Shown piece after piece: positions 273 through 56,560 of a stretch of DNA of 64,000 bases (its first letter is position 1; the number at the start of each line of letters is the position of its first letter). Source of the stretch: an uncultured delta proteobacterium (GTDB lineage: Bacteria > Desulfobacterota > WTBG01 > CAIYCZ01 > CAIRTM01); NCBI GenBank assembly GCA_963718965.1, contig CAVRBJ010000022.1:82479-146478 (forward strand), read 5' to 3'. The translations under genes and the position numbers were made by a program. The notes under the pieces are model-generated. The model did not search any database and was not told the DNA's origin. It saw only the letters and a list, made by a program, of their open reading frames with translations.

Positions 273-395
273 CCCCCCAAAAGAGGGTGCGGAACGATTC
301 CCCCTTTAGCAAAGGGGGTTAGGGGGATTTGTCAGGCTGCAAAAAATCCCCCTGTATCCCCTTTTTCAAAGGGGGATGAAATATGAATGTTTTTT
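273..395. repeat. Dispersed double-hairpin intergenic repeat, copy 1 (CCCCCTTTAGCAAAGGGGG ... CCCCTTTTTCAAAGGGGGA)
   Basis: Near-identical to copies at 33861-33968 and (inverted) 51812-51913; partial copies at 28333, 42400 and 56514. Confidence 0.7.
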
Positions 396-446
396 TGTAT
401 AAAATTAATAGCGCCCTCTTTTTTATGTGCCACTGCCACTAGACGA

Positions 447-482
447 CGAAGGCACGGGGAAACATTGTTTCCCTGTGCCTCC
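447..482 (-). terminator. GC-rich hairpin downstream of pnp (GGCACGGGGAAACA/TGTTTCCCTGTGCC)
   Basis: 14-bp inverted repeat 45 bp past the pnp stop; no clear U-run. Confidence 0.4.
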
Positions 483-525
483 ATGCGGCAACCATCGTTA
501 TACAAGCAGGCTTTACTCAGTCGGC

Positions 526-2633
526 CTAATCCTGGTCACTGAGTGCAGCTTTGCGGCTCAGCCTGATCTTTCCCTGCGAATCGATCTCAAGTACCTTGAC
601 CATAACCTCATCTCCCTCGTTAAGAACGTCGCGCACATTTGCTACGCGCTCATTGGCAAGCTGGGAAATATGCACAAGGCCGTCACAGCCGGGAATGATC
701 TCAACAAAAGCACCGAAATCCATAATCTTGCGCACCTTGCCCTTGTAAATCTTGCCGATTTCCGCCTCGGCCACTACTCCGCGAATGAGATCAAGAGCCT
801 TCTCGATGGATGCCTGGTCGGCAGATGCCACCGATACCTTGCCGTCGTCCGCAACATCTATCTTACACCCGGTCTGGGCTATGATGCTTTTGATATTCTT
901 GCCGCCCGGGCCGATAACGGCGCTGATCTTGTCGGGCCGAACCTGAATGGTAACGATGCGCGGCGCGCGCGGCGAAATGTCGGGCCGCGGCTCACTGATC
1001 GTCTTCTGCATGATGTCAAGGATATGGAGCCGTCCCTCGCGGGCCTGCTCAAGCGCTGCAGACAGAATTTCCTTCGGCAGACCCTTGATCTTGATGTCCA
1101 TCTGGATGGCGGTCACGCCATTGCGCGTGCCTGCAACCTTGAAGTCCATGTCGCCGACATGATCCTCGTCGCCCAGAATATCGGAAAGAACCACAAAGGT
1201 ATCGCCTTCCTTGATAAGCCCCATGGCGATGCCCGCAACAGGATCCTTGATCGGCACGCCTGCATCCATCAGCGACAGCGTGCTGCCGCAGACCGTTGCC
1301 ATGGAGGATGAGCCGTTAGACTCAAGCACTTCCGACACGATCCGGATGGTGTATGGGAAAACCTCAGCCGTCGGCAAAACATAGCTGAGTGCGCGCTCGG
1401 CAAGATTTCCATGCCCGATGTCGCGGCGGCTGGCCGACCGCAAGGGTCGTGCCTCGCCAACGGAAAACGGCGGAAAATTGTAGTGCAGCATGAATGCCTT
1501 GGTGCTCTCGCCGATAAGCGCGTCAACCCGCTGCTCATCATCTGCCGTGCCAAGGGTTGTCGCCACCAGCGCCTGGGTCTCGCCGCGGGTAAACAGGCCC
1601 GATCCATGCGTTCTGGGCAGTATCGCCACATCGCAGGCTGATGGCCCGTATATCTTTATTGGTGCGGCCGTCAATGCGGCGGCCGTCCCTGGTGATGGCG
1701 CTGCGGATAATCTCTCCCTCAAGGCTCTCAAGAGCGGAGGCAATATCATTTCCCGCCTCAGGGAGCTCAGCTTTAAGCTCGGTGAGCGTCTGTGAGAAAA
1801 TGTCGCTCACGGCGGCATTGCGCTCGAGCTTCACCGGCAGTGCCAGTGCAGCCTTCATGGGCTCAAAGGCCTTCTGCCGAACCTTATCCGTGATGTCGGT
1901 GGCGATGCTGCGGTCGGCAATGTTCATCTTGGGCTTGCCGACGCGCTCGCGCAGTTCTCGCTGCATGGCCAGCACGTCCTGCAGGCCACTGTGGCCGAAC
2001 ATGATGGCATCCAGCAAAACCTGCTCGGATACGCACTGAGCCGATCCTTCAACCATGACCACCGCGTCCCGGCTGCCGGCAACAACGATGTCAAGCTCGC
2101 TGTCCGCCATTTTGGCTGATGGGCGGATTGATTTCAAACTGGCCGTCAAAACGGCCTACGCGCACACCGGCGATAGGCCCGTGAAAGGGAATATCGGAAA
2201 GCTCAAGGGCTGCCGAAGCGCCGATCATGGCCGCCATATCGGGATCGTTCTCGCCGTCGGCGGAAAGAACTGTTGCGATAATCTGAACATCGTTGCGAAA
2301 CCCCTTGGGAAAAAGAGGCCGCAGGGGCCGGTCGATGAACCGGGAGGTCAGTATTTCATGTTCGCTGAGCCGGCCTTCACGCTTGAAGAATCCGCCCGGA
2401 ATTTTGCCCGCAGCATAGGTCTTTTCAACATAATCTACTGAGAGGGGGAAAAAATCCACACCCTCCCGCTGCTTGCTTGAGACAACTGCGGTCACGAGCA
2501 CCACGGTTTCACCATAGCGCACCAGCACCGAACCGTTTGCCTGCTTGGCCAGCAGCCCTGTTTCAATCGTCAAAGGACGTCCGCCCACATCAATAGTTAC
2601 TTTTTCTTGTACTGTCATTATTTTTTCCTTCAT
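526..2633 (-). CDS. pnp: Polynucleotide phosphorylase (PNPase); reading frame broken twice in this assembly
   Basis: Three overlapping ORF pieces (2091-2633, 1538-2149, 526-1749) together give the RNase PH x2, KH and S1 domains ([23 protein letters not shown]1 [15 protein letters not shown]). Confidence 0.9.
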
Positions 2634-2656
2634 AGTGTGGGCAGAAATCTCGGATG

Positions 2657-2674
2657 GGCCTGCATCTGCAGGCC
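2657..2674 (-). promoter_or_regulatory. rpsO-pnp intergenic hairpin (rpsO terminator / pnp leader stem)
   Basis: Perfect 8-bp inverted repeat GGCCTGCA tc TGCAGGCC between the rpsO stop and pnp start, in the position of the known pnp leader/RNase III stem. Confidence 0.45.
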
Positions 2675-2709
2675 TCTTTTACTACCTGTTCCCGCCCGTG
2701 TAGTGTACG

Positions 2710-2979
2710 TTACTTTCTCAGATTCAGTGATATCAGAATCTCTTTGTACTTATCGACATTTCTGCTCTTCAGATAATCAAGGAGCCGTCTGCGCTGATTA
2801 ACCATTTTGATAAGCCCGCGCCGGGTGTTGAAATCCTTGACATGGCTCTTCATATGCCCGGTCAGATACGTTATGCGCTCGGAAAGCAGCGCAATCTGTA
2901 CTTCGCTCGAGCCGGTGTCCTTCTCGTGAGTTCTGAATTTTCCGATAATTTCCTGTTTCTGTTCGTTCTGTAATGCCAT
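2710..2979 (-). CDS. rpsO: 30S ribosomal protein S15
   Basis: MALQNEQKQEIIGKFRTHEKDTGSSEVQIALLSERITYLTGHMK..., canonical S15. Confidence 0.9.
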   Translation of the reverse strand: MALQNEQKQEIIGKFRTHEKDTGSSEVQIALLSERITYLTGHMKSHVKDFNTRRGLIKMVNQRRRLLDYLKSRNVDKYKEILISLNLRK

Positions 2980-2983
2980 ACCT

Positions 2984-4013: not shown

Positions 4014-4022
4014 GCCGCAGGT

Positions 4023-4400
4023 CTATTCCTTTTCCTTGCCCGACTCCAGCTCATCTTCGATACCGCGCAGAATCTTGTCCATTCTCGCGCCGTTTTCAAA
4101 TGAGCTGTCATAGGCAAAGGTAATATGCGGCGTACACCGCAGCTGCAAACGGCCGCCGACCTTGCGCTGGACAAAGCCTGCAGCATGCCGCAGGCCCTCC
4201 ATCACCTCTTCCAGCAGCTGCCCGTCCTGAAGCAGTGTGGTAAAAAAAACCCTGGCGTTTCTCAGATCTTTTGACAGGCGCACGTCGGTGATGGTCACGA
4301 AGCGCACGCGCGGATCCTTCACCTCGCGCAGCAGAACCTCGGCTATATCGCGCCGCATAAGATCCGCAACCCGATCCGTCCGCTGGAATGTTCCGCTCAT
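4023..4400 (-). CDS. rbfA: Ribosome-binding factor A
   Basis: RVADLMRRDIAEVLLREVKDPRVRFVTITDVRLSKDLRNARVFFT is typical RbfA. Confidence 0.9.
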   Translation of the reverse strand: MSGTFQRTDRVADLMRRDIAEVLLREVKDPRVRFVTITDVRLSKDLRNARVFFTTLLQDGQLLEEVMEGLRHAAGFVQRKVGGRLQLRCTPHITFAYDSSFENGARMDKILRGIEDELESGKEKE

Positions 4401-4406
4401 AGCACG

Positions 4407-4700: not shown

Positions 4701-4703
4701 GGC

Positions 4704-7367
4704 TTACAGCTTGCGCTCCAGCTCTTCAACAATAAAAGACTCGATAATGTCGCCCTCCTGGAAATCCTTATAAGCACCCAGAGCGATACCGCAGTCCTGG
4801 CCCGGGACAGCTTCACGCACATCATCTTTAAAACGCTTCAGCGAGCTGATATCGCCTTCGTACACCACCTCGCCGCCGCGCAGCACGCGGCCCTTGGAGC
4901 GGCCCAGTATGCGCCCCTCAACAACAAAACAGCCGGCGATCGTGCCCAGCTTTGAAATCTCAAACACCTGCCGCACTTCTGCCTTGCCCGAAGACTTTTC
5001 AGCATACTTGGGCGCCAGCATGCCCAGCATGGCCTTTTTAACTTCGTCCATCACGTCGTAGATGATCTGGTAGTTGCGCACGTCAACCTTTTCCTGCTCG
5101 GCCGTTTCATTCACCTTGGGTTCGGTCTTCACGTTGAAACCGATGATAATGGCCTTTGATGCCGCAGCGAGCATAACATCGTTCTTACTGATAGCGCCCA
5201 CGCTTGAATGAATTATCTGAACCTTGACCTCATCGGTGCTCAGGTTTTCAAGAGACTGTTTGAGCGCCTCGAATGATCCCTGCACATCGGCTTTGAGAAC
5301 AATCCGCAGCACCTTGGCATCCGCCTCGGCAACGGAACTCATAAAATTTTCAAGCGAAATGCGGGCGTCTTTACGCAAATCCCCCTCACGCAGCTTCGTC
5401 AGCCAGTAGTCGCTGGTCTGGCGCGCCGTCTTCTCATCAACCACCAGGAACATATCCCCGGCCTCGGGCACGGCTGTAAAGCCGATAATCTCAACCGGAG
5501 TTGAAGGTCCGGCCTCTTTCATCGTCCGGCCATGATCATCGATGAGGGCGCGTACTTTGCCGAAGTGCTGCTTGGACGCAAACGAATCGCCTACCCGCAG
5601 CGTGCCTTCCTGCACAAGCACGGTGGCTATAGGGCCCCTGCCCTTATCAAGCCGTGCCTCGATAATGGAACCTTTGGCCGGCTTGTCGGGATTTGCCTTG
5701 AGATCAAGCATTTCAGCCTGCAGCAGCACCATTTCAAGCAGCTTATCGATATTAATATTCTTCTTTGCCGACACTTCAACAAAAATCGTGTCGCCGCCCC
5801 AATCCTCTGAAAGCAGGCCGTAGTTGCTCAATTCCTGACGGACTTTTTCGGGATTGGCCTCGGGCTTGTCGATCTTGTTAATGGCCACAATAATCGGAAC
5901 CTGCGCGGCTCGGGCATGATTTATCGCCTCTATGGTCTGGGGCTTGGGCCCCTCTTCGGCGGCAACCACAAGAATGACGATATCGGTCACCTGCGCGCCA
6001 CGGGCGCGCATGGAGGTAAAGGCTTCATGGCCCGGCGTATCGACAAATGCTATTTCGCCACGCGGCGTCGTGACTTTATACGCGCCTATATGCTGGGTAA
6101 TGCCGCCTTTTTCACCGTCGGCAACATTTGCATTTCGTATGACGTCCAGAAGACTTGTCTTGCCGTGATCGACATGCCCCATGACTGTCACAACCGGGCA
6201 GCGGGGCAGCATGTGTTCATCGGCATCGTGGGTCTTCGCCTCAAACATGGTTTCAGGCTCATTGGAAAGGCTTTCAATTTCATAGCTGAAGTCAGTAGCA
6301 ACCAGCGTTGCCGTATCAATGTCGAGCATCTGGTTAATTGTTGCCATTATGCCCAAGGCTATGAGCTTCCTGATGATATCGCTGGCCTTCACGCCCATGC
6401 GTTTTGCAAGTTCACCAACCGTAATGCCGTCCTGAACCCTGATTTTACGCTTGATCGCCTTAGGCACGGTCTTTTCAGTTCCTTTTTTGGCTGCAGGCGC
6501 AGCTTCTCCTTTGCGTCTGACTTTGACGGGCATCCTGTCTTTTACTTTATACCTGACACGGCGGCTCTGCGCTGCCCCCTGATCGGCCTCTTCGACTACT
6601 TCTTCGCTCAGCGGCGCCTGCTGCCAGCGGAATTTCTGGCGTTTGATTTTGTCTTTCACCGGATCTTTGGCGCGCTTTTCGCGCTCGCGCGCCTCTTCCT
6701 CGGCAGAGGGCTTTCGCACCAATCCCGGCTGTTCGACAGAAACCGGGACCGGCTGCACGGCCGGTGCATGAGGCGCACAGGCTGCTCCGGCTCAGGGACA
6801 TGCCGTGGCCTCAGGTCTATTCGACCGATAATGCTGGCCGGTGTAGATTCTTTGCCTTTAAAACTCAGTTTCTTGAAAGCAGGTTTCGCCTCAGCAGGCT
6901 CGTCAGCCGGCTCGACTTCAGCACCTGCGGTCTCTCCATCTGCTGCGGGCTCATGCTTGTTCCGGTTCGGGCAGCACCTGGCGCAATAAGCCCGGTTGAT
7001 GCAGTTGATCGTCCGGTTCATGCGCTCCTGCAGCAGCCAGGGGATCTTCAGTCTGCGCTACCGCAGCCTCAGGCTCGGCTTCGGCTTTCTTGCGGCGCCG
7101 GATAACTGTTTGGCCGATGCGCCGCTCCATAAGTTTCTCGCCCGATGCCACATCAATCTTTTCAACTTCCTTGACAGGTTCAAGGCCTTTTGCGGAACCT
7201 GCGTCTTTGCCGGCCTTGCCAGCACGAACCCGACGCCGTACATCATCGACCTGATAGTCGAGCAGGCCGCTTGAATGGGTCTTGACTTCAATGCCCAGCT
7301 CCTTGAGCAGTGGCATCATGTCCTTGGTCTCTATCTGCAACTCTTTGGCTAATTCGTGAACTCTCAT
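4704..7367 (-). CDS. infB: Translation initiation factor IF-2; N-terminal third frame-shifted (6656-7021)
   Basis: N-terminus [28 protein letters not shown]; G-domain [17 protein letters not shown] ... DTPGHEAF; broken across three ORF pieces. Confidence 0.9.
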
Positions 7368-9589: not shown

Positions 9590-10276
9590 ATGAATGATCG
9601 AAAAGCAGCTTCCGTAAAGAAAACACCAGATTCGGCCCAAAGCCCGGCAGCATCCAGCATAATCAAAAAAACGTTGAACCGCGAAAATATCGAAGCCATA
9701 GTCATCGCCATCGTGCTGGCCCTGGCAATCAGAACCTTTGTTGTGCAGGCCTACAAAATCCCCTCAGGCTCCATGGAGCCCACGCTGCTCATTGGCGACC
9801 ATATCCTTGTCAGCAAATTCATTTACGGCATTTCCATCCCTTTCATCGACAATAAATTTTTTCAGCTGAAAACTCCAGCACGGGGAGATGTTGTTGTCTT
9901 CATCTATCCTATGGATGAAAGCAAGGATTTCATCAAACGCGTTGTTGCTGTTGAGGGCGATACCGTTGAAATCCGTCAAAAAAAAGTATACCTCAATGGC
10001 CGCCCTGTTGAAGACCCCCATGCCCATTTCACTGACAGCACCCTGTACAGCGGCACTGACGCAACAGCACAGCAGCGCGACAACTTCGGCCCGAGAACCG
10101 TACCACCCGGCAATATTTTTGTTATGGGCGACAACCGGGATCGAAGCCTCGACAGCCGCTTCTGGGGATTTGTCGGCATTAATAAAATCCGGGGCAAAGC
10201 GTTCCTGATCTACTGGTCATGGGAAAGTTTTTTCAACAACTTCCGCTGGCGCAGGCTCGGGCAGCTGATCGAGTAA
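9590..10276 (+). CDS. lepB: Signal peptidase I
   Basis: SGSMEPTLLIGDHILV ... GDNRDRSLDSRFWGFV, catalytic Ser/Lys boxes. Confidence 0.9.
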   Translation: MNDRKAASVKKTPDSAQSPAASSIIKKTLNRENIEAIVIAIVLALAIRTFVVQAYKIPSGSMEPTLLIGDHILVSKFIYGISIPFIDNKFFQLKTPARGDVVVFIYPMDESKDFIKRVVAVEGDTVEIRQKKVYLNGRPVEDPHAHFTDSTLYSGTDATAQQRDNFGPRTVPPGNIFVMGDNRDRSLDSRFWGFVGINKIRGKAFLIYWSWESFFNNFRWRRLGQLIE

Positions 10277-18244: not shown

Positions 18245-18407
18245 GTGTCTGAACAAAAAGTCATATCTTTGCAGGTTGTGTTAAGACCGGAAGAAACCGC
18301 TGGGTTTCGTACCTCAAACCAACCGCGCAAAAACAATTGCTTGTGAAAAAGTACAGGCATAAGGGCGAACCCGACAAATACATGGTTCCGGGTTTTCGTT
18401 CATCCAC
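18245..18407. mobile_element. MITE-like element, copy A (163 bp, terminal inverted repeats GTGTCTGAACAAAAAG / GTGGATGAACGAAAAC)
   Basis: ~85% identical (inverted orientation) to 61255-61419; ends are imperfect inverted repeats; no coding capacity. Confidence 0.6.
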
Positions 18408-18463
18408 TAACTACATGGTAAGCATCACCGGGTGTCGAGTCAAATTATTTATCATGCAGAGCG

Positions 18464-26547: not shown

Positions 26548-28205
26548 ATGTTTGACATACTTATACAGGGCGGCACAGTCATTGACGGCACGGGCTCTGC
26601 GGCTCAGCGCTGCGATGTGGGCGTTACCGGCGAAACGATAGCTGCCGTTGGGATGCTGCAGGCAGCGGAGGCCCGCGAGGTGATTGATGCACGGGGCATG
26701 CATATCTGCCCTGGCTTTATCGACATGCACGGCCACTCGGACTTCAACCTGCTGGTGCAGCCGCCGGGCCGGGGCAAAGTCATGCAGGGCATAACAACCG
26801 AAGTAATGGGCAATTGCGGCTTGTCTGCAGCTCCCCTGCTTGGTGCGGCGCGCAGCCAGCGGGGAAAAAGCATAAAAAACCTGGGCTTTGAGCTCTGCTG
26901 GACGCATCTTGACGAATTTGCCGAGGCCATAAAAGATACAAACCTCCCCTGCCATATGGTGCCCCTTGTCGGCCATGGCAATATCCGCGGCTCCATTGTG
27001 GGCTACGGCAGCCGGCAGCCCACGCCGGGTGACATGCAGGCAATGGAGCGCCTTCTCCTCCGGCAGATGGAGGCAGGAGCCTGGGGCCTTTCAACCGGTC
27101 TTGTCTATCCGCCCGGCATGTATGCCGGCCCCGATGAAATTGCAGCACTTGCAAAAATCGCCGCCCGCTTCGGGGGCATCTACACAAGCCATATGCGCAG
27201 CGAAGGCGACCGGCTGCTTGAGTCTATCGAAGAAACTCTTGCCGTTGGGCGCAGCGCAGGGATACCGGTGCAGATATCGCATCTCAAGACGCAGGGCAAG
27301 CGCAACTGGCACAAGCTGCCGGCTGCTTTTAAACTGATTGAAAAGGCTCGCGCTGACGGATTGACGGTTTTTGCCGACCGCTATCCCTACACAGCCTCCA
27401 GCACAGGGCTCGACGTGGTGTTTCCGGCCTGGGCCTGCGAGGGCGGCAACGCGGCCGAGCTCGAGCGGCTGCAATCACCTGATATGCGCGACAGGATCTA
27501 TGCCGATATTCTTGAGCGCATGACAGAGGACGAGCTTGCCCGGGATATACTCATTGCGAAAGTCGTTACCGAAAAAAACAAATCCCTTGAAGGTCTGCGG
27601 CTCGGGGCAGGCCGCTGCCCTGCGCGGACAGTCAGTGCGCGACTGCCCTGTTCTCGATTCTTACGGAGGAGGAGCTGGATGTCGATGCGGTATTTTTCTC
27701 CATGTGCGAGGACAACCTCAGGGAAATCCTGCGCAAAGACTATGTCATGATCGGCTCCGATGCCTCGGTCTGGGACACCGAGGGCGTGCTTGGCGCAGGC
27801 AAGCCGCACCCGCGCGCTTTCGGCAGCTTTCCCCGCGTACTGCGAAAATATGTGCTTGAGCAGAAGCTGCTCAGCCTTGAAGAGGCAGTCTATAAAATGA
27901 CCGGCCTGCCTGCAGCCGCCATCGGCCTTTCAGAGCGCGGGGTCATCAGGAAGGGGATGAAAGCGGACCTGGTGCTCCTGCGCCTGGACGATGTGCAGGA
28001 CCGGGCTGACTACGCAGAGCCGCACCGCTTTCCCGAGGGCATCAGCCGCGTCATGGTCGAAGGAATATGGGACAGTTGCGGATGGAGCTATTACCGGAAA
28101 CTATGCGGGCAGGCTTCTGCTAAAAAAGCCGGCGTAAGTGCGGCTCCACTCAAACAAAGGGGCAAAATGCCGGACACGAACCTGATGTTGCGCGTTAATT
28201 GGTAG
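26548..28205 (+). CDS. N-acyl-D-amino-acid deacylase (D-aminoacylase); two frameshifts near 27590-27700
   Basis: MFDILIQGGTVIDGTG ... CPGFIDMHGHSD metal-dependent amidohydrolase; C-terminal piece 27702-28205 continues the family. Confidence 0.8.
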
Positions 28206-28332
28206 GCCGGACAAAGCGAAGCGTGTCCGGCGATCTCGCAGACATTCTGCAAAGATCAGGTTCTTTGTCCAGCCTACGGTTTTTTCGCCCCTCTATCATG
28301 TGTTTCTGTATTAAGTGCGGCGTCGCGGAAAA

Positions 28333-28378
28333 GAAGGGACAAAAAATTCCCCTTTAGCAAAGGGGGAGGGTTTAGGCA
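28333..28378. repeat. Double-hairpin repeat, partial copy 2 (first hairpin only)
   Basis: AATTCCCCTTTAGCAAAGGGGGAGGGTTTAGG matches the left half of the 273-395 element. Confidence 0.5.
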
Positions 28379-28797
28379 ATAAGGGGTTATGCATATTTAT
28401 TATATTCGATTAATAGTGCCCCCCTTGTTTATATGGCGCTGGACTAAGCAGACAGGGGCATGGCAGAAGGAAAGCTCTACGAATCTCTGCCTTGCGATGG
28501 TTTTCCTAACAGCATCGAATCTACAGCAATGTTTAAAATATCCAGAAACGACTCGGGCTGCGTATAGTCCTGTACATCTATAAAAAAATTCATCACCGGT
28601 TTGTTTTTATAGGGAGAGGTAAGAAAAAAGCTCAGAGCGTTTGTCTTATTCTGAATAAACGGTACGAGCCTGAATCCGCAATCGTCGTCTCTGCAACTTG
28701 CCATGGTTAGTATTCCTGTATGAAAGTACGTATCAATATTCTATAGCCAGTATTTTATGTAAAGTATTGAGGAATACTTAAATTCCTTTAGAAAAGA

Positions 28798-30012: not shown

Positions 30013-33000
30013 CTACAGCATGCACACCGTATCGCACACAGGCTGACCATTGCCGCCGCAGCCGGGGTCTGGGTCGCACACATCGCCTATGCCATCACTG
30101 TCGGCATCAAGCTGATAGTAATTACAGATGGCCGGGCAGTTATCATGTGCACTATCATGGGAGTCATAGTCGGAATCAGTCTGCCCCTCACAGGTTGGCT
30201 GGCCGCACCCGTCGCCGCAGCCGGGTGTCGTGTCGCACACATCACCTATTGCTGTCGCCATCGGCATCAAGCTGAAGCGGATTGGCAATATCCGGGCAGT
30301 TATCAAGAACATTTAAAATACCGTCATTATCCGTATCGCATGACTGCTCGCAGGCAGGCTGCCCTGCACCGCCGCAACCCGGATCCGGGTCGCATATATC
30401 CCCTATGCCGTTGCCATTGGCATCGAGCTGATGCACATTGCAGACGTTCGGGCAGTTGTCAGCGGCATCAGCCTACCCATCGCCGTCTGTATCAATCTGG
30501 CTCTCACAAACAGGCTGGCCGCAGCCTGTGCCGCAGCCGGGTGACGGGTCGCACACATCGCCTATGCCGTTGCCATCGGCATCAAGCTGCTGGGGGTTGG
30601 CAATGGCCGGGCAGTTGTCTGAGGCATTTGAGAATACCGTCGCCGTCTTTATCACTTCCGACATTAGAGGTAAATTTGCAAAGCTGCTTGCGCAGCCCTC
30701 AAAAGCCCAAACGTTTTTTGTAATATAAGGGGATATGCACCTATTGGCTGGAAATGGATTATAATTACCCTCAAAATATGCCGCAGTCAAACGAGGACAA
30801 TTAGAAAACGCTGCCCCCGGCTTCTTAATCAGCCCCCCAGGAGGCGGACCACCACAATAAGGTTCTCCGGTCTCATCATCGTACATCTCCCAACAACATT
30901 CACAACCAGCACTCAAAATTAAACTCGCCGGTATGAACACGGTGGTCAATGCGGGTACTGAAAACGCATAAGCCCCAATTCTTCTTACCGGCAGGCCTGC
31001 TATGGTATTGGGAATTACAAGAATTTCGGCAGACCCGGTATATCTGGTGATTGTGGCTGTATTGTCGTACGCTATTATGTAGTTAAAATCCCCGGCAACT
31101 CCAATTGACGTGGTGGTTGTGGGTTGCATGGTTGTTGTCGTAGTTGCTAGAAACCGTAGTGGTCGTAGTCGGCTGGATGGTAGTCGAAACGCTTGTCGTC
31201 CCGGTGACAGAAGTTGTCGTTGATGTGGTCAGCGCGTTAAAAGCATTAACGAGGGTATAAGCCCCTATGGAGCTTGAGCTGTAATGCCGCACCGCGACAT
31301 AATAGGTGCCGGCTGACAGCGTTCTCGTAATTGAAAAATTTAATCCTTCGCCATCATCGTCATCGGATTCGATATCGGTACATGCGCTGTCTTTTAAATA
31401 GCCATACGTGTCGGTGGACCCGGTTGTATACACATTCAGCGTTCCGTATGCGGGAATATTAATCGCGAAATAATCATAGTCGCCGGCAGGATTTATAGAA
31501 GCACTTATGGAGCTGTTGAGCGGCATGGCAAAGGCTGCTGCGCAACTGTTGCCGTAATCGTCGAGAATCAGTCGACGTTGTGGTCGGCTGAGTTGTTGTA
31601 GTTGTAGTTGTTACAGATGGATCAAACACCGCCGCAGGATAGCCGTACCAGGGATTGGTAAACCCGGTGGCACCGGCAACATAGTACACTTTAAAGCCGC
31701 TTGCGCAGTTATTAAAAACATATACCCCATTGTCGGCGCATTCCCGTAAAAATAGGCGGAGGCCAAACCTGGTGCAGCCATACAAACGCATTATCGCCAA
31801 TGCTCGTAACACTGGCAGGAATGTTAATGCTGGTCAAACCTGTGCAATGCCCAAAACATTGGGTCCAATAGCTTATAACGCTGCCAGGAATAGTCACACT
31901 GGTCAAACCTGTGCATCTCATAAAATGCTCGCCTGTCCCCAAAGCTTGTAACGCCGTTAGTATCCTGGTCACATCTGGTCAAGCCTGGTGCAATAGATAA
32001 AACGCCATTTTGTCCGGAATACTCGTAACGTTGCTCGGGATTTTAAGCTGGCCAAACTGCGCAACTGGAAAAAGCACAGGCCCAATAATTGTAACATTCT
32101 GAGGAATGGTCATACTGGTCAAGCCGGTGCAGCCAGAAAACGCGTTATGCCCAATATTCGTTACGCTGCTCGGGATGTAACGCTCGGTTAACCCGCTGCT
32201 ATCCTTGAAAATAGCACTGATCCCAATGGTTACTACCGGCATGCCGTCTATGGTATCTGGTATTACAACCGCTCCACCGGAGCCGGTATAGCCGGTGATG
32301 GTGACAGAGCCAGCTGATACTGTATAGGTAAACGGAAATAATGCCGTCGTATAGCCATACCACGGATTGGTAAACCCGGTGGCTCCGGCACGATAGTACA
32401 CTTTAAAACCGCTTGCGCAGCCACCGAAAACAATGTCGCCAATGTCGGTGCATTCCCGTAAAAATAGGCGGCAGCAAACTGTACAAAGGAAAACCCCCAC
32501 TTCCCAATACTTGTAACACTGGCCGGAATGATAATACTGGTCAAACCGGTGCAGTATAAAACTTCCGTGCCCGAGACTTGTAACATTGTTCGAAATGATC
32601 GCATTGGTCAAGCCTGAGCAATAGGCAAACGCAGCCTGTTCGATTCTGGTAACGCCGTTCAGGATGGTAACGCTGGTCAAACCGGAACATCCCATAAACA
32701 TGTAAGAGTAATGCTCGTAACGCTTTCGGAATGGTAAGCTGGTTAACCCTGCGCAGAAGGCAAACGCGGCTGTTCCAATACTGGTAACACTGTCGGGAAT
32801 GGTCAAACTGGTCAAACCGCAACCTTGAAACGCCCTTATCCCAATGCTCGTAACGCTGTTTGGGATGATAATCCCGGTCAAGTTACTGCAACCTTGAAAT
32901 GCCTCCAACCCAATGCTTGTAACGCTGCCCGGTATGGTAGCGCCGGTCAAGCTGCTGTTGTTCAAAAAAACCTGATCCCCAATACTTACTACCGGCATGC

Positions 33001-33193
33001 CGTCAATAGTATCGGGAATGGCAACATCTCCGCCGGGTCCGGTATAGCCGGTGATTGCGACCGCACTGCCTGAGACCGTGTAGGTAAAATCCCCATATTG
33101 CTGGGCAAAAGCAGATGAGTACAGAAACAGACAACCAATCACTGGCAGCAGGAAAATAGATTTTTTGAACTGCATAGAGAACCCCTCCTCCAC
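30013..33193 (-). CDS. Large secreted surface protein with signal peptide, BspA-type leucine-rich repeats, a pre-peptidase C-terminal (PPC) domain and thrombospondin-type-3-like Ca-binding Cys-rich repeats; fragmented into at least eight frames
   Basis: MQFKKSIFLLPVIGCLFLYSSAFA signal; repeated GLTSxTIPxSVTSIGxxAFxxC units; GDYDYFAINIPAYGTL...GTYYVAVRHY PPC; DADGNGIGDVCDPSPGCG TSP3-like; ~150-bp internal direct DNA repeats (31620-31760 vs 32350-32470). Confidence 0.55.
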
Positions 33194-33422: not shown

Positions 33423-33607
33423 GCCAAGACCCAGTAACTTCCAAACCGGCAGTTCCGCTGTCCTAACACTTTATAGACCGGTAACTTTGCGCTTTACCCG
33501 TGAAGGTAAATTGCTCTTTTCGGTTCGCACTTGAGTACTAATTTAGCACACTTTTTCAGTTTGTATATAAAAAGTCTCAGCAATAAAATTATTTATTACT
33601 GCAAAAT

Positions 33608-33802: not shown

Positions 33803-33860
33803 ACATGGTTCGACCCTTTTGTGAGGGATTAGTAACATGTTGCACAGTACCGGAACAAAG

Positions 33861-33968
33861 CCCCACAAAAGAGGGCATAAAAATTCCCTCTTTAGCGAAG
33901 AAGGTTAGGGGGATTTGTCATGTAGCAAAAAATAACCATGTATCCCCCTTTTTCAAATGGGGATGAAA
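33861..33968. repeat. Double-hairpin repeat, copy 3
   Basis: CCCCACAAAAGAGGG...TTCCCTCTTTAGCGAAGAAGG...TATCCCCCTTTTTCAAATGGGGATGAA aligns along the full length with copy 1. Confidence 0.7.
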
Positions 33969-34188
33969 CAGGCTTGTTTATTGTAAAATTAAATTTTATA
34001 TGATGCACAGGATTGGACATCAGGATGACTCCGGCATAGACTTAAACATACAACTATCCAAACAGCAGCAGAATATGGTAAATGAATTGTTATCCAAAAT
34101 ATGAGCTTGCCGCGTCCACCGTGGCGGACTCGAAATGAGACTTTATTTATCTGTCATGACTGGTGTTCTCATACTTAAAGGTATACGC

Positions 34189-40919: not shown

Positions 40920-41060
40920 CAGTAGATCATCACATTTGATATTATAAGTTGAGATCACCCTCCCCTTAATCCCCTCACATCAAGGGAGGGGAAAATTGTT
41001 GACTCCCTCTCCCCTGGTGGGAGAGGGTTGGGGTGAGGGAGCCTATAAAATCATATGTGT
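40920..41060. repeat. ~140-bp direct repeat, upstream copy flanking the BON gene
   Basis: AGTAGATCATCACATTTGATATTATAAGTTGAGATCACCCTCCCCTTAATCCCCTC...CTCCCTCTCCCCTGGTGGGAGAGGGTTGGGGTGAGGG, ~90% identical to 42045-42185. Confidence 0.7.
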
Positions 41061-41167
41061 AATCTGCTAGCTATGTGTCATACTTTTTGGTTTAATTAAA
41101 TTTTCAATAATGCCGGGCAAATACATACATACTAACTATATTATAGACCTATAACAAAGGGGAGACG

Positions 41168-42046: not shown

Positions 42047-42185
42047 TAGATCATCACATTTGAAATTATCAGTTGAGATCACCCTCCCCTTAATCCCCTC
42101 CTATCAAGGGAGGGGAAATATTGGGCTCCCTCTCCCCTGGTGGGAGAGGGTTGGGGTGAGGGGACCAACAAAATCAAATGTGAAG
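42045..42185. repeat. ~140-bp direct repeat, downstream copy (starts on the BON gene stop codon)
   Basis: Direct repeat of 40920-41060. Confidence 0.7.
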
Positions 42186-42399
42186 GCCCACTAGCAGGTT
42201 GTTGAAAAAGTCAATGAAGGCAGGCTGTTTAAAAATGCTCAGATGCAAGGCGCACGAAATCATGAGAAATGAGGCGTACTTTTTGTACGCCGCAGTGAAG
42301 CATGATGAGCGCAACGCAGCAGATGGGCGTTTTTAAACAGCCTGCTAGGCTGAAAGGAAGGTCTATCAGAAAAGTTCCGAATACTAGTACCGCCTTACT

Positions 42400-42445
42400 G
42401 AAAAGAGGGGCCGTCAATATTCCCCCTTTTTCAAAGGGGGATTAA
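42400..42445. repeat. Double-hairpin repeat, internally deleted copy 4
   Basis: AAAAGAGGGGCCGTCAATATTCCCCCTTTTTCAAAGGGGGATTA: start motif joined directly to the second hairpin. Confidence 0.45.
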
Positions 42446-42478
42446 ATAGTCCGATTCCCTCTTTTACATGATACTTTA

Positions 42479-44993: not shown

Positions 44994-45035
44994 AGCCACG
45001 ATGTCCCATGCCCATACCATTGCGAAGATACAGTT

Positions 45036-45105
45036 TATGACCCGCCCCGCCAGATAGACTACCGCTTTTACATATGCCTTCCTCCTGCCAAAAACCCGTT
45101 GTTTG
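45036..45105. repeat. 62-bp direct repeat R1a flanking the RelBE module
   Basis: TTATGACCCGCCCCGCCAGATAGACTACCGCTTTTACATATGCCTTCCTCCTGCCAAAAACCCGTT; second copy at 45696-45765 with 5 mismatches. Confidence 0.6.
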
Positions 45106-45695: not shown

Positions 45696-45765
45696 TTTGG
45701 ACTTATGACCAGCCCCGCCAGATAGACTCCCGCTTGTACATATGCCTTCCTCCTGCCAAAAATCC
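45696..45765. repeat. 62-bp direct repeat R1b
   Basis: Second copy of 45036-45105, immediately after the toxin gene. Confidence 0.6.
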
Positions 45766-46056
45766 GTTGATATATAGAGGTCTGTATAACACAGGGATTC
45801 CCCACAAAATGCAGAACGAGGGTTTATATATTGACAATATTTGTATAATTTGAAATAAGCGCCATAGGCTAGAGTTCGGGAAATACAGATGTCTGTATAA
45901 TGTATGTTAATCTATGAGAGATGAAAAATGCCAAAAAGGATCAAATAAGGGATAACCTATATGAGACTTTTGCCAAAAATCTTTCTGCCATAAAAAGAGG
46001 AGACTTTTGTTCATTTCGAGCCAAACATAGAAAATTGTTATATCTGTCCTTTATGT

Positions 46057-46981: not shown

Positions 46982-47731
46982 ATGGAAGAGAGTAGATCGA
47001 GACATATTATAGAACTCGCTAAAGAATTATTGGATGACATTGAACTGAACAGGATCAGTGCTGAGCAACTTTTGTTAAAAGCTAGCAGACTTGCGAGGTG
47101 GATGGGCTCGGAGGAAATCCAACAATGGTTGAAGCTTGAAATGACTGGCTACGACAATAGCAAGGTGGCCCTCAAATATATGTCAATAACTGGCAGGTGG
47201 ACGGACAGAGAAAAAGGAATGGGATACTGGGGGGCCACTAGCCCAACAGGAAGCTACAATACAGGCTCAGAAAGCCAAACTAGCCAGTATGAGAACGCCC
47301 GATATAGGTGGCGACTACGCGAACATTGCCATCACAAATGTTACAAACACGATGAATGCGACAGCAAATCATATTTCTACGTTCAGCGCGATAAAAAGCA
47401 GGGTACTTGCACAGCTTCATCAATTCGTTAGTGAAGTTTATTACAGTCTGTATTTGAAGGATTATCGGAATCAATCTTTGAACGATACAAACGGGACGTG
47501 GATATTCTCATAGCAGAGTCGTGCGGCACAGTTCTAACGCAGATTGCTACCGTTATGGACCGGCTCGTCGAGGGGGATATAGAGGCAATCAGCCAGGCGC
47601 TAACAACGTGCCGTCGTATAATTGAAAGCTTTGCTGATTCTGTTTTCCCACCCAGTGATGAACCAATCGAAATCGGCGGGAATATTCTCAACTTGGGCGC
47701 AGATAAGCATCAGAATAGAATGAATGCCTAA
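46982..47731 (+). CDS. AT-rich hypothetical protein, three frame pieces
   Basis: MEESRSRHIIELAKELLDDIELNRISAEQLLLKASRLARWMGSEE... ; no confident family. Confidence 0.35.
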
Positions 47732-49838: not shown

Positions 49839-49844
49839 GTCCTG

Positions 49845-50311: not shown

Positions 50312-51644
50312 CTATCCCTGCCAGTTCGGTCGCGAGGCGGTCCAGCGGGAAATCTCGTCATGCAGCCAGCCCTCAAGACCCTTGGCAAGATAAAACTGCG
50401 GCAACAGCAGATCATCATCGGCTGCAATGACTCCTTCGGAAACCGCAATGCGGGCAAGCCCGGTATCGGGGTAGATGCGGATGCCTGCGGTGAGCTTTAA
50501 AAAATCAAGAGGCAGGGAATCGGCAAAGCGCAAGCTCTCAAGCACGGTTTCGCGCGTCTCGCCCGGCCCGCCGAGCAGCAGATAGCCGTTGAGCTTAATG
50601 CTGTGTTTTTTAAAAAGCTCTGCCGCCTGCCGGACATCATCAGGAGAGAATCGCTTGCGCATGCTTTTGAGTATGGCCGGGCTGCCGCTTTCAAACCCGA
50701 GGGCAACCTCGACGCAACCTGCCCGTGCCATGTCGGCAACCAGAGCTTCATCGATTTTGTACGGATAGACAATGCAGGTCCAGCTGACGCTCAAGCGCTG
50801 CATCGATAAAAGCCCGGCACAGATCGCGGGCATAATCCGCTGGAAGGTTAAAAGTGTTGTCTGTGCAGTAAAAGCGCGTAAATCCTGCCTCCGCATGGCG
50901 AAGGATGTGGCCTACCACAGCCTTCGGGTCGCGCTTGCGAAGGGTTGTGCCTTCAATACTGGCTGTTGAGCAGTAGCTGCATGCAAGCGGGCAGCCGCGC
51001 CGTGTCTGAAACGGCAGCCATAGATCCTGCCGCCCCTCCATCGGGCAGGGCCACAGTTCTGGATCGGGCTGGGGGAGCTTGTTCAGGTCAAGGATGGAGC
51101 AGATTTTTTTAAACGGGGAGCGGCCCTTGACATACACGCCCTTGATCATGGCAGGGTCAACGCCCATGCGCAGGTGGTCGAGCACGGCGGGCAGCGCTGC
51201 CTCGCCATCGCCCTTAATGCCGATATCAGCGTCAAGCCATGCAAGCAGCCGCTCCGGATACATGCTGTAGCCTGCGCCTCCCAGAATGATGGGGGCCTTT
51301 GAAAGCCTGCGGCAACTGGCGACAATCGCCTGAAGCGGCTCAAGAAGGAACCGCGTATCATGCATGCTCTGATCATCGATATTGCGCACCGAAATGCCGA
51401 TTGCATCAGGGGCAAAGTCCGTAATCGCCTCTGCCGCCTGCTGCCCGGCATCGCTGCCGGCACAAATCTCCTGAATCCGCACCTCATGACCATCCCGCTG
51501 CGCAGCCGTTGCAACGCAAACAATGCCGAGGGGCAGCGTCGGCATAATCAGATCGGGCATGGAAATTGTAATAAACAGAACTTTCATAAGCTGATTGTAT
51601 ACCATGAAGCCATGGCGCTTTACATTGTTTTTACCGGCAGACAA
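50312..51644 (-). CDS. B12-binding-domain radical SAM protein; frameshift near 50750-50900
   Basis: N-terminal cobalamin-binding fold; CPLACSYCS radical SAM cluster motif; C-terminal piece 50312-50896. Confidence 0.75.
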
Positions 51645-51811
51645 CAGGAGTGTATGTTCTCAAATGCCGGTAAAGAGTTTATCGGCAATCACCTGTAGCC
51701 GCGCCCGTCAAACAATATTTGACATCCCCTGCCGCCTGGGTTAATACATTATGACCTGATTCGTTCCCGAACGAAAAATTTTTTATTTGACACAAAAAAA
51801 TACGTCTATTC

Positions 51812-51913
51812 AATCCCCCTTTGAAAAAGGGGGATACAGGGGGATTTTTTAAATCCTGACAAATCCCCCTAACCCCCTTTGCTAAAGGGGGAATTTTTTC
51901 GCCCCCTCTTTTG
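51812..51913. repeat. Double-hairpin repeat, copy 5 (inverted orientation)
   Basis: Reverse complement aligns end to end with copy 1. Confidence 0.7.
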
Positions 51914-51927
51914 TAGGATTTTGTACA

Positions 51928-51960
51928 TAGGTTTTCGTTCAGCCACTAATTCCGCTTGCA
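51928..51960. repeat. Solo terminal repeat of the MITE-like family (TTTTCGTTCAGCCACTAATTCC)
   Basis: Matches the ends TTTTCGTTCAGACACTAAGTACC (61401-61423) and TTTTCGTTCATCCACTAACTAC (18392-18413). Confidence 0.4.
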
Positions 51961-51972
51961 TAGACAGTACTT

Positions 51973-52380: not shown

Positions 52381-52429
52381 TACCGCAGGCCTGATTTCAC
52401 AAACCCCATTATCCTTTAGCAAGTTACCT

Positions 52430-53366: not shown

Positions 53367-54127
53367 AGAATGTCTCAGGCAGCGCGTGGTCTATTTCATC
53401 TTTCTGATCTCGCTGCTGTTTGTTTTCATGGCAAAAGGCTGCGATATCGGCTCCATTAAAGGCGAATAGCATGCTTATCGGCAATGCGGCGCGCCAGGGC
53501 ATTACTCTTGGAATATCATTCCACGGTATTGTTTTCTGGAGCATCATGCTCTGCGGGTTGCTGGCCTCCCAGGTTCTCACGCGCGATATGGATGAAGGGT
53601 ATGCTTCCGTAACGCTTGCGAGGCCATTAAGCCGCGACGCATTTATCGCTGGTAAGCTGCTGCCGGTTCTTATTATTTCGGCGCTCAACCTCACCCTTTT
53701 AGGCTGGCTTTTCTGCTGGTTTTTCTACAGGTCAAACGGCTCAATTACCATGCAGCTTCCGCTGAGCTTTTTATTCATGACAGCAAGCCTTGGGCTGTAC
53801 GGGCTTATGATCTGCTGCCTGTCGCTGTTCATTCCGAGGCTGCTGGCGCCGCTGGCTGGCATCGTGCTGTATATGCTGAGCTGCTGGTCGTCGCTGCCCT
53901 ATTTTTTTGAAAACCTTAAAATACTCTGGACGCCGTCTGAAACTGTACAGCGGCTGCATATGCTGCTGCCGAAATTCGGGGATCTGCAGTTTATCGGCGC
54001 CTCCATTTTAAGCGGGGATAAACCCTTCGACGCCGTTAACCCCATGATTGTACTCTGCAATATTGCAGCCTATGCCTGCGTGTTCTGGCTTGTCACGGCC
54101 TGGGCCTTCAGGCGCCGCGAGCTGTAA
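53332..54127 (+). CDS. ABC-2-family transporter permease; frameshift near 53460
   Basis: MKIWALTKIGLKECLRQRVVYFIFLISLLF then six-TM continuation in ORF 53420-54127. Confidence 0.65.
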
Positions 54128-54215
54128 GAAGTATTGAAACTATCTGCCGTTTCTGCTATAGTTTTAAATTCTAAAGTCGCCATGTAAACCTCACACCAGT
54201 AAGGAGAACACACCC

Positions 54216-54779
54216 ATGATAGATACGACCGCTATCAGGAAAAACCTGAAGCTGCTTATTGACAACGACCCCTGGATCGTTGTGGATTTTCAGTTCGTCA
54301 AGCCTGGCAAAGGGCAGGCCTTCACCCGCACAAAGCTGAAAAACCTGATTTCCGGCAATACCATGGAGCGCACCTATAAATCGGGCGAAAAGCTCGAAGA
54401 GGCCCGCATAGATGAAAATGAAATGGTCTTCCTCTACAGTCAGGGTAAAAACTACACATTCATGGACAATACCACCTACGAGCAGGTCGAGCTTACTGAA
54501 GATCATGTGGGTGATGCCAGGAATTTTCTTGTCGAGAATATGAATGTCGAAGTGCTGTTCTTCGACAGCCGCCCGATCAGCGTCGAGGTGCAGAACTTCG
54601 TGAATCTTCAGATCGTTGAAACCGAGCCTGCAACCAAGGGCGACACGGTCAGCGGCGCCACCAAGCCGGCCACTCTTTCAACCGGACATACGGTCAATGT
54701 GCCGCTTTTTGTCAATAACGAGGAGTGGATCGTCATCGATACGCGCAACGGATCATATGTGGAGCGGGTAAAAAAATGA
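54216..54779 (+). CDS. efp: Elongation factor P
   Basis: VKPGKGQAFTRTKLKNLISGN with the conserved modifiable Lys in the KPGKG loop; 187 aa. Confidence 0.9.
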   Translation: MIDTTAIRKNLKLLIDNDPWIVVDFQFVKPGKGQAFTRTKLKNLISGNTMERTYKSGEKLEEARIDENEMVFLYSQGKNYTFMDNTTYEQVELTEDHVGDARNFLVENMNVEVLFFDSRPISVEVQNFVNLQIVETEPATKGDTVSGATKPATLSTGHTVNVPLFVNNEEWIVIDTRNGSYVERVKK

Positions 54780-55696
54780 GCGGGCAGCCCTCCCCGCGCA
54801 CCATGTTCCCCGGCGATTTCGCCGCAACGCTCCGCCTCAGGCACAGCATCATACAGGAAATACGCCGGTTTTTCGACACCACCGGCTATACCGAAGTCGA
54901 AACACCCCTCAGAGTACCATGCCCCTGCATAGACATCTTTATAGATGCCTTTCCCGCAGGGGCATCTCTTTTTCTCTCGACATCGCCGGAATTTCACATG
55001 AAAAGGCTGCTTCGGCTGAACCTTGAGCGCATCTACCAGATCGGGCGCGCTTTTCGCGCTGAAGAGGCGGGAAGGCACCACAGCCCTGAGTTCACCATGC
55101 TTGAATGGTACCGCATTGGCACTGATTACCGCGGCATTATGGAGGAAACCGAGCAGCTTGTGCGCCGTCTTACAGAAGCGCTCGGTCCGCAATGCGAAGC
55201 CCTCAGCTTTCCGTTTGGCCGAATGACCGTCGCAGAGCTGTACGGAAAGTATGCCGGCTGGGACCCTGTCACCGGATGGGATGAAGAGCGCTATTTCCGC
55301 GACTGGGCTGATAAAATCGAGCCTGAACTTTCCGGGCTTGGCTCATTTTTTCTGATAGATTTCCCGGCCCCCCTTGCAGCCCTTAGCCGCATCAAACAGG
55401 GAGAACCTCTGGTCTGCGAGCGGTTCGAGCTCTTTATCCACGGCCTTGAAATAGGCAATGCCTACAGCGAGCTCCTGGACTATGATGAGCATATCAGCCG
55501 GTTTGCGCTGGCTTCTGCAGCCCGCACGGCAATGGGCAGGCAGCCCTACCCTGCGGATGAAGGATTTCTGGAATCCATCAGACTGGGCCTGCCTGCATGC
55601 GGCGGCATGGCAGTGGGTGTCGACCGCCTCATCATGGCCCTTCTGGGACGTGACCACATAAACCTTGTGCAGGCATTCCCGGTGGAAAGGCTCTGA
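54776..55696 (+). CDS. epmA: EF-P lysine aminoacylase EpmA (GenX/PoxA), class II aaRS-like
   Basis: FPGDFAATLRLRHSIIQEIRRFF ... LEWYRIGTDY ... CGGMAVGVDRLIMAL motifs; ATGA overlap with efp. Confidence 0.85.
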   Translation: MSGQPSPRTMFPGDFAATLRLRHSIIQEIRRFFDTTGYTEVETPLRVPCPCIDIFIDAFPAGASLFLSTSPEFHMKRLLRLNLERIYQIGRAFRAEEAGRHHSPEFTMLEWYRIGTDYRGIMEETEQLVRRLTEALGPQCEALSFPFGRMTVAELYGKYAGWDPVTGWDEERYFRDWADKIEPELSGLGSFFLIDFPAPLAALSRIKQGEPLVCERFELFIHGLEIGNAYSELLDYDEHISRFALASAARTAMGRQPYPADEGFLESIRLGLPACGGMAVGVDRLIMALLGRDHINLVQAFPVERL

Positions 55697-55697
55697 C

Positions 55698-56510
55698 ATG
55701 CTGCGCAAAAAGCCGTACCTGAAAATACTTGCCCATAAGCCTGATATTTTCAGCGCACTACCTGCCGAGGTGCTGAGCGAGGAGGCCGCAGACCGGCTCC
55801 GGGAGATTCCCCGCCTTGCCGTTGCCGAAATCACCGGCCCGGCAGACCTGCCTGCCCTGCGCGAGCTGCTGAAGCACCACAGGCCCGATGGGCTGCTGCC
55901 CACATTTGCCTATACCGGCACTGAATACGGCGATTGGGCGCAGCTAAGTGATATGGCGGCAGCGCTGAAAAAAAAATTCGAGAAAGAGCTCAACATTTAT
56001 GTTGCCGAACCCGTTGTGCTGGGCTCTCCCGCGCTTTGGAAAGCGCTGCGGGAGGCTCATGAAGGGGAGGTCCGGAGGCGTTTCGGTTTTCCCTGCTCAT
56101 GCCTGGGGTGCCGGCTGTACAGCTACGTGCTTCGCGTTCCCCTGTGCAAAACAATCGATGCCCGTTTTTTCATACCGTCGCTGCACGGCCTGGTTCAGCG
56201 CGGCTGCCCGGCACATACAACGACTATTGAAAGAAAATATTTCACTTTTCTTATGTCCGGCTACGGCATTGATGTCTGGCATCAGGGTTTGAATTATGAG
56301 CAGACAGGTGACGAGGGCCCCTGCCTGTCATGCGTGCTTATGCCTGAGGAAGGCAGCAATATATCGCAGGACAAACTGATCCGGTACTTCGAGCTATTCG
56401 CCCTTCCCGCAGCAGGCGGCATACTGAGCCTTGCGGTCTCCGGCGCGCAGGCTGACTATGCACGGATTGTTTTTCAAGCAGCACAGCAGAAAAAGGCTGC
56501 CCGGCCATAA
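55698..56510 (+). CDS. Cys-rich hypothetical protein translationally coupled to epmA
   Basis: 271 aa; FPCSCLGCRLYSYVL ... GCPAH ... CLSC; TGAcATG junction with epmA. Confidence 0.5.
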   Translation: MLRKKPYLKILAHKPDIFSALPAEVLSEEAADRLREIPRLAVAEITGPADLPALRELLKHHRPDGLLPTFAYTGTEYGDWAQLSDMAAALKKKFEKELNIYVAEPVVLGSPALWKALREAHEGEVRRRFGFPCSCLGCRLYSYVLRVPLCKTIDARFFIPSLHGLVQRGCPAHTTTIERKYFTFLMSGYGIDVWHQGLNYEQTGDEGPCLSCVLMPEEGSNISQDKLIRYFELFALPAAGGILSLAVSGAQADYARIVFQAAQQKKAARP

Positions 56511-56513
56511 TAT

Positions 56514-56560
56514 TTGTCAGGCTGTAAAAAATCCCCCTGTATTCCCCTTTTTCAAAGGTG
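56514..56560. repeat. Double-hairpin repeat, partial copy 6 (second hairpin)
   Basis: GTCAGGCTGTAAAAAATCCCCCTGTATTCCCCTTTTTCAAAGGTGGAATGAA. Confidence 0.5.

Follow-up and report, generated by a model that had tools for sequence, protein, structure and literature searches.

The intergenic repeats found in 64,000 nucleotides of DNA from an uncultured delta proteobacterium (contig CAVRBJ010000022.1, positions 82,479 to 146,478; this whole stretch is referred to below as the window) are very probably a non-autonomous DNA transposon, namely a MITE (miniature inverted-repeat transposable element) of ~182 nt. The family is previously undescribed, but it is selfish DNA of an ordinary kind. Six copies of this one family are present in the window, five on the plus strand and one on the minus strand, and all of them are intergenic, in line with a sequence-only reading of this DNA that had reported a dispersed repeat in six intergenic copies occurring in both orientations. 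Indeed, the hairpin pattern CCCCCTTTNNCAAAGGGGG, allowing at most 3 mismatches, yields 16 strand-matches at 8 sites of the window versus 0.18 expected, all 8 sites fall within the six copies, and an independent repeat search of the window recovers the same family (D10, D13, D15, I1, I2, and I5). All three long copies contain the junction 16-mer TTAGGGGGATTTGTCA without mismatch; the two weaker matches to it, at 10160 and 63460, fall within coding sequence (a signal-peptidase-like stretch and a DUF255 gene) and were dismissed as chance. The end-to-end alignment of three copies, already proposed by the sequence-only reading, holds on recomputation. The copy at 33861 is point-mutated, and its core no longer folds (z -0.48).

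Alignment of the window copies together with their flanks shows that conservation reaches well past the 110 nt first described. With the element ends set by nhmmer and MAFFT on 21 copies, the consensus spans ~182 nt, meaning that ~35 nt had been missed on each side. It begins, after a TNA triplet, with GTACAAAGCCCCACAAAAGAGGGGGCGAAAAAAT and finishes with GCCCCCTTGTTTGAGGGGCGCTGTAC followed by TNA. Since the 5' arm is the reverse complement of the 3' arm over ~30 nt, the arms are terminal inverted repeats (TIRs), which are imperfect (consensus GTACARMGCCCCNCAAAMRAGGGGGC) and whose consensus is recovered from both element ends; the 27 arm pairs available are 72% paired as compared with 39–54% when the partners are slid. 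The arms enclose a core, an 80-nt palindrome made of three hairpins with stems of 8–10 bp and loops of 3 nt or 13 nt: hairpin A (TCCCCCTTT-AGC-AAAGGGGG, then TTA), hairpin B (GGGGGATTT-13 nt-AAATCCCCC, then TGTAT), and hairpin C (CCCCCTTT-TTC-AAAGGGGGA). Hairpins A and C have 8-bp stems (CCCCCTTT/AAAGGGGG) and 3-nt loops, AGC in A and TTC in C, whereas the previous description was that of a double hairpin with 5-bp stems and 9-nt loops, in which hairpin B had been overlooked. The core is predicted to fold either as three hairpins or as a single nested hairpin, and the predicted fold is very stable (z -9.8 in the related locus L026 and -5.0 in copy 1 of the window). An A/T-rich TATAAAAT spacer, TTAAATAGGCTTATTTTTTTGTATAAAATTAATATT, follows the core, and no open reading frame (ORF) or coding capacity is present within the ~182-nt element.

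The flanks of the element carry the mark of transposition. Identical triplets border both ends of eight copies from independent sites, TTA in L004, L008, and L016, and TAA in L007, L010, L029, window copy 2, and a sister element. One metagenome-assembled genome (MAG) contains both L016 and L007, recent paralogues that have common derived indels and unrelated flanks and are bordered by TTA/TTA and TAA/TAA, respectively. Because these flanks differ, the triplet is a duplicated target and not a part of the TIR, a palindromic TIR extension predicting the opposite. Among the full-length aligned copies in which both flanking triplets are TWA, six have them in the same sense and one in the opposite sense. 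A 2-bp TA or a 5-bp CTNAG duplication was rejected, since it would either give different copies different ends or produce mismatches in L008 and L010.

An insertion site lacking the element is found in the interval between pnp and the M16-peptidase gene, which we reached in more distant relatives via homologues of polynucleotide phosphorylase. The loci L032 (89% amino acid identity in pnp) and L033 (82%) are without element between these two genes. The L032 sequence ...CCGTC-TCA-AGGG... stands at the exact place of ...CGTC-TAA-[element]-TAA-AGGC... in L008, from which the window copy differs by one base; with its TNA target, the L032 junction makes a clean empty site. In the contig P0011 of a 94% relative, only 120 nt are left of this interval. 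Two other loci were considered and discarded as empty sites: L029 for copy 6, where the whole intergenic region is replaced and the junction is not clean, and L043 for copy 2, where a retained remnant of the 3' arm denotes a deletion.

In the sister element (28138–28311, minus strand), an unrelated interior of ~105 nt is enclosed by the same TIR arms and, outside them, by a TAA/TAA duplication (28135–28137 and 28312–28314). The element lies directly left of copy 2, with which it shares the TAA at 28312–28314, and the D-aminoacylase gene has its stop codon in the leftmost TAA. Furthermore, L030 and L031 contain this interior again, between the same arms. The existence of a sister subfamily having the same arms and target-site duplication but another interior means that the arms are the transposition ends and that the three-hairpin core is dispensable for mobility.

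The six copies of the window form a decay series. Copy 1 (265–438, plus strand), which has the 3' end of pnp on one side and the start of the M16-peptidase gene on the other, is full-length, with the 5' TIR arm at 265–297, the core at 298–377 (hairpin A, 300–318; hairpin B, 323–353; hairpin C, 357–375), the spacer at 378–405, and the 3' TIR arm at 406–438. It has orthologues in L005 and L008; its 5' target-site duplication is TTA at 262–264, and the 3' partner at 439–441 is CTA in the window and TTA in the orthologue L008. Copy 2 (28315–28444, plus strand) keeps both arms intact and a perfect TAA/TAA duplication (28312–28314 and 28445–28447) around a core reduced to one hairpin with the A-type AGC loop, through a deletion between hairpins A and C. 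Copy 3 (33853–33993, plus strand), placed between a c-di-GMP-I riboswitch/leucine-rich-repeat gene and a divergent HlyD-family gene, consists of the 5' arm, a mutated core in which hairpins A and B are disrupted, and the spacer, its 3' arm being unrecognisable. Copy 4 (42387–42454, plus strand) comprises the 5' arm, a single A/C-hybrid hairpin with a TTC loop, and a short spacer, the remainder being deleted; its orthologue in L001 is full-length. Copy 5 (51779–51926, minus strand) has the 5' arm, an intact core, and the spacer, and has lost in the window the 3' arm that the orthologue L029 retains. Finally, in copy 6 (56512–56625, plus strand), the spacer and the 3' arm are retained along with hairpin C, whose stem has two mutations, and the ATG of a PAS-GGDEF gene follows 28 nt downstream of the end of the copy; the orthologue of this copy in L011 is full-length, and L029, with a different intergenic sequence, has no copy there. 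The sequence-only reading had taken the copies at 28333, 42400, and 56514 for truncated or internally deleted ones, and they are indeed so, the former two as one-hairpin A–C deletions and the latter as a 5' truncation inside hairpin B.

Hairpins A and C are near-identical, and copies 2 and 4 have both lost what lies between corresponding positions of the two; as copy 2 retains the AGC loop and copy 4 the TTC loop, such losses indicate recurrent recombination or slippage between the 19-nt repeats. The L029 orthologue of copy 5 carries another MITE, of ~135 nt (L029, ~2640–2775), inserted into the loop of hairpin A; this fourth MITE has the TIR GAGRCTGTGTCRCAATT, with an IS5/IS1031-like start, and a TTA duplication, and a similar sequence adjoins the L010 copy. 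At the site of copy 3, no family copy is found in L043, from the MAG CAWDSQ. The corresponding intergenic region of L043 (15081–15817) holds an IS1595-family insertion sequence (IS) of 737 nt with a perfect 21-bp TIR, GGGTCATGACTAGTTTAGAGG, and a 226-amino acid transposase; it was rejected as a partner of the MITE since this TIR is unrelated. After insertion, copies persist at their sites across species and decay through point mutations, A–C deletions, truncation of their ends, and nested insertion of other MITEs. Three genes of the window, pnp (526–2633), the D-aminoacylase gene (26548–28205), and a B12-binding radical-SAM gene (50312–51644), are each split by frameshifts into overlapping ORFs, which probably reflects homopolymer indel errors of long-read assembly, or else pseudogenes. 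For this reason, caution is needed with single-base differences in the G5/C5 runs, the CCCC of copy 1 (hairpin C) being one example.

The family extends beyond the window. A scan of 185,579 species genomes with the exact core 18-mer GGTTAGGGGGATTTGTCA, which half of the window copies keep, returned 31 loci, 20 of which are genuine family members from three uncultured Thermodesulfobacteriota/'Deltaproteobacteria' MAGs (13 matches in JAFGCP01, 5 in CAWDSQ01, and 2 in CAYNVA01); the other 11 were judged not to be members. Only two or three extra fragments were found in the ~250 kb flanking the other matches, and scanning a metagenome collection with a degenerate TIR pattern added two more MITE copies, along with chance terminator hairpins. 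Altogether, more than 25 copies are known on more than 20 contigs, with unrelated flanks, their sources being no fewer than three other MAGs plus two additional metagenome contigs. These matches indicate a copy number of tens per genome and not the hundreds that had been extrapolated from the window, and a narrow host range, limited to a few uncultured sulfate-reducer-type bacteria. Compared over positions 1–64000 with L001, L005, L008, L011, L029, and L043, the window is locally dense, with six copies and the sister element in 64 kb versus 5–13 intact cores in the whole of the closest MAGs, and, since several of the few copies of these relatives map to the same syntenic region, this region is unusually dense. 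A sub-motif composed of a C5 hairpin and TTAGGGGGATTTG also occurs outside the family, in L002 (4449–4486), L014 (1885–2130), L020 (107–160), L041 (~4873–4925), and L042 (~7240–7276), its hosts being Algoriphagus (Bacteroidota), a cyanobacterial MAG where it forms a hairpin cluster, an unclassified MAG, and one viral contig with two occurrences; either a convergent low-complexity, terminator-like sequence or a shared motif could lie behind it.

Insertion of the element takes place at TNA trinucleotides, with their duplication, which implies a DDE-type transposase that would be supplied in trans and make a 3-bp staggered cut. A 3-bp TNA duplication is a hallmark of Harbinger-type elements. Likewise, the IS1031 group of the IS5 family inserts at 5'-TNA-3' and makes 3-bp repeats (PMC12016507); among prokaryotes it is the group known to behave in precisely this manner, and the 3-bp direct repeat at a TNA target observed here matches this feature of the group. 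From this duplication only, we infer with modest confidence that the partner may be IS5/IS1031-like.

Several observations weigh against the interpretation of the family as a MITE mobilised in this way. A perfect target-site duplication is kept in only ~40% of the copies, the rest differing at one or two of the three positions, which is consistent with the age of the copies. Only one clean empty site was found, the other polymorphic sites being rearranged. The TIR starts with GTACARMGCCCC (GTAC), without the GA-type start of ISLrh (GAACCTGT) or of the MITE nested in L029 (GAGRCTGT), and this start makes the assignment to IS1031 weak. No autonomous element with these TIRs was detected in the window, in ~400 kb of related loci, or in the degenerate-TIR scan of metagenomes; an arms-only hidden Markov model run over the ~400 kb of related DNA gave no TIR pair 0.7–2.5 kb apart. 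Lastly, within orthologous pairs, the core (minus the 18-mer) shows 4/123 differences versus 29/210 for arms and spacer (Fisher p = 0.002), and such a slow core is not predicted for a purely neutral fossil MITE.

That the repeats are structured non-coding RNA genes or cis-regulatory leaders would account for the very stable fold, for the conserved core, and for the position of some copies just upstream of genes, but the comparison between copies makes this highly improbable. Rfam gives no family at either the gathering or the E-value threshold, its best sub-threshold hits being spurious microRNA or small nucleolar RNA models, and none of the 28 core pairs shows a compensatory change. Covariation between the arms is no better than in shuffles, 439–488 of 500 shuffles scoring at least as high, and arms whose partners are shuffled among copies are 73% paired versus 72% for the observed pairs. 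As shuffled and observed pairing are the same, the arms are independently decaying descendants of one TIR and not a maintained helix; consistently, the arms were rejected as the closing stem of an RNA, complementarity within copies showing no excess over that between copies (8.7 vs 9.6). A strand bias, which the sequence-only reading had named among the things to check, did not emerge, orientation relative to genes being random, roughly 9 to 8 over ~17 independent sites, and this absence of bias led us to reject a 5'-untranslated region or riboswitch-like role. Furthermore, the neighbouring genes are functionally unrelated, housekeeping or miscellaneous, and the presence or absence of the element is accompanied by a target-site duplication.

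The same duplication and the empty site contradict a repetitive extragenic palindrome (REP) or BIME-type element, which would be mobilised on its single-stranded hairpins by a REP-associated tyrosine transposase (RAYT), an IS200/IS605-like enzyme. Extragenic, G/C-rich hairpins in both orientations agree with such an origin, and the sequence-only reading had called the repeat REP/MITE-like; its MITE half is borne out by the TIRs, the target-site duplication, and the empty site, while its REP half fails, as the short palindrome architecture is missing and no transposase, RAYT/Y1 enzymes included, is found among the 40 ORFs of the window. A unit of 182 nt with 30-nt TIRs and a 3-bp duplication, the lack of a conserved GTAG-type 5' tetranucleotide, and a copy number in the tens leave this origin with very little credit. 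Local duplication has next to no chance of being correct. Six copies per 64 kb are denser than elsewhere and several intact cores of the relatives map here, but copies with unrelated flanks on at least 20 other contigs, from three MAGs and one further metagenome, refute a repeat confined to this locus. A full-text literature search for strings of the core sequence returned only unrelated primer or barcode matches.

With the family viewed as a MITE, the behavior of its core deserves attention. The core evolves ~4–5 times more slowly than the arms in orthologues, and in independent paralogues hairpins A and C are 97–100% conserved as compared with 80% for the arms, and what changes the core has are nearly confined to the loops of B and C. 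Part of this conservation is explained by ascertainment with the exact 18-mer, since L036, a copy ascertained through its arms, has core changes; gene conversion among identical cores and host-level selection are further candidates. Selection would mean that the host has co-opted the MITE for its palindromic core and keeps many of its copies, possibly as a terminator, a stabiliser of mRNA 3' ends, a protein-binding site, or an outward promoter in the A/T-rich spacer; this would add to the transposon origin without excluding it, and we regard it as rather unlikely. The sequence-only reading had seen in the hairpins a protein or RNA recognition module more than a simple terminator, and the core, being more conserved than the arms, may or may not have such a role. 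The difference in rate between core and arms, with its variation mostly in the B and C loops, speaks in its favor, as does the ability of the sister subfamily to move with another interior, the core not being needed for mobility. In addition, the antisense strand of hairpin A followed by AATTTTTT scores as an intrinsic terminator in L026 and in copy 5 (c51913), where hairpin A occupies 51873–51891 of the window plus strand, and several copies end 15–35 nt upstream of start codons. However, this terminator-like site exists in the consensus only in the antisense reading, was not detected in copy 1, whose T-run is disrupted, and points the right way for an incoming gene in only about one site of two; with random orientation relative to genes, no single directional role fits. 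The promoter scan was empty for L026 and c51913 and gave only a 9/12 match in c273, the stems show no compensatory changes, the copies at 33861, 56514, 28333, and 42400 are visibly decaying, and gene conversion or the 18-mer ascertainment, given the core changes of L036, could produce the same conservation. Any effect of the copies on neighbouring genes is putative. Still more doubtful is the idea that the arms are a vehicle delivering a functional 80-nt G5/C5 cassette to intergenic DNA, kept near-invariant across species by the host or by gene conversion as the arms decay; such a cassette may, for instance, bind a protein, work in both directions as an RNA hairpin/terminator module, or form a cruciform, and the TTAGGGGGATTTG sub-motif of the Bacteroidota, the cyanobacterium, and the viral contig could then be a widespread recognition motif rather than a coincidence.

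Among known systems, the MITEs derived from the IS1031 group (IS5 family) and the eukaryotic PIF/Harbinger 'Tourist' MITEs are alike in being short and non-coding, with TIRs, a 3-bp TNA duplication, and a high predicted hairpin stability. The present family differs from them by the GTAC start of its TIR, by its highly conserved three-hairpin G5/C5 palindrome, and by the absence of a cognate transposase in the DNA searched. The Correia elements (CREE/NEMIS) of Neisseria are intergenic MITEs of ~100–160 bp with ~26-bp TIRs, existing as full-length and internally deleted classes that can provide promoters or terminators and give rise to RNA hairpins; they duplicate TA and reach hundreds of copies. 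The likeness lies in the intergenic location, the TIRs, and the internally deleted size classes, but there is no sequence similarity between the two families and the hosts belong to different phyla. Size and class of the Correia elements are documented in PMC3184786.

Closer in host, Chunjie, a MITE found in Geobacter uraniireducens, is 178–235 bp long, its folds are predicted to be very stable, and its partial copies are numerous (PMC3184786, PMC10969869); it thus resembles our family as a deltaproteobacterial MITE of similar size. Chunjie has 21-bp TIRs, makes 9-bp direct repeats, and is A+T-rich (PMC3184786). Identity with it was rejected in view of the ~30-bp TIRs, the 3-bp TNA duplication, and the G5/C5 hairpins found here. 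The pneumococcal BOX, RUP, and SPRITE repeats are modular, SPRITE includes a terminator-like hairpin, and such small repeat families are clustered and mutually inserted in intergenic DNA (PMC10969869). Modularity, a terminator-like hairpin module, and bunched, nested repeats are common to both cases, which differ in sequence and host. BOX elements are not known to make a target-site duplication. REPs are units of 20–40 nt that are not known to have TIRs or a target-site duplication, usually in hundreds of copies and with a partner Y1 transposase; our family resembles REPs and BIMEs as extragenic, G/C-rich palindromes, and these other traits are not seen in it, the Y1 transposase having been looked for among the 40 ORFs of the window.

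Other repeats populate the window. A second MITE family of ~150 nt is represented by two direct copies (40928–41075 and 42052–42195) bracketing a BON-domain gene, with TIRs TAGATCATCACATTTGA.../...TCAWATGTG..CTA flanked by CTAG, and its interior contains CCCTCCCC/GGGAGGGG and CCCTCTCCCC..GGGAGAGGGTTGGGGTGAGGG hairpins; the copy at 42052 is absent from the orthologous L001 site. Two copies, 85–90% identical, of a third dispersed element of ~170 nt lie at 18245–18415 (plus strand) and 61250–61419 (minus strand), with TIRs GTGTCTGAACAAAAAG / GTGGATGAACGAAAAC, and fragments of these TIRs abut main-family copies, at 51931–51950 and, for the L016 copy, in its 3' flank. The c-di-GMP-I riboswitch near copy 3 (33445–33525, minus strand; 48 bits, above the gathering score) is upstream of a BspA-type leucine-rich-repeat gene (31979–33193) that has strong internal DNA repeats. 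A direct repeat of 67 nt with 94% identity is found at 45035–45101 and 45703–45769, 668 nt apart, and an ORF with an AbiTii (abortive-infection) domain (46982–47431) adjoins unannotated small ORFs, with which it may form a small defence islet.

The MITE family added by this work comes from an uncultured clade of Thermodesulfobacteriota, includes at least two subfamilies with common TIRs and different interiors, and is accompanied by a defined target-site duplication, a dated insertion, and a visible decay series. Much of the intergenic repeat load of the window, and of its rearrangement, is explained by this family along with no fewer than three further MITE families, and in annotation these elements should be masked ahead of the prediction of small RNAs, terminators, or promoters. 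Of all the features of the family, only the slower evolution of the core might hint at something other than selfish DNA.

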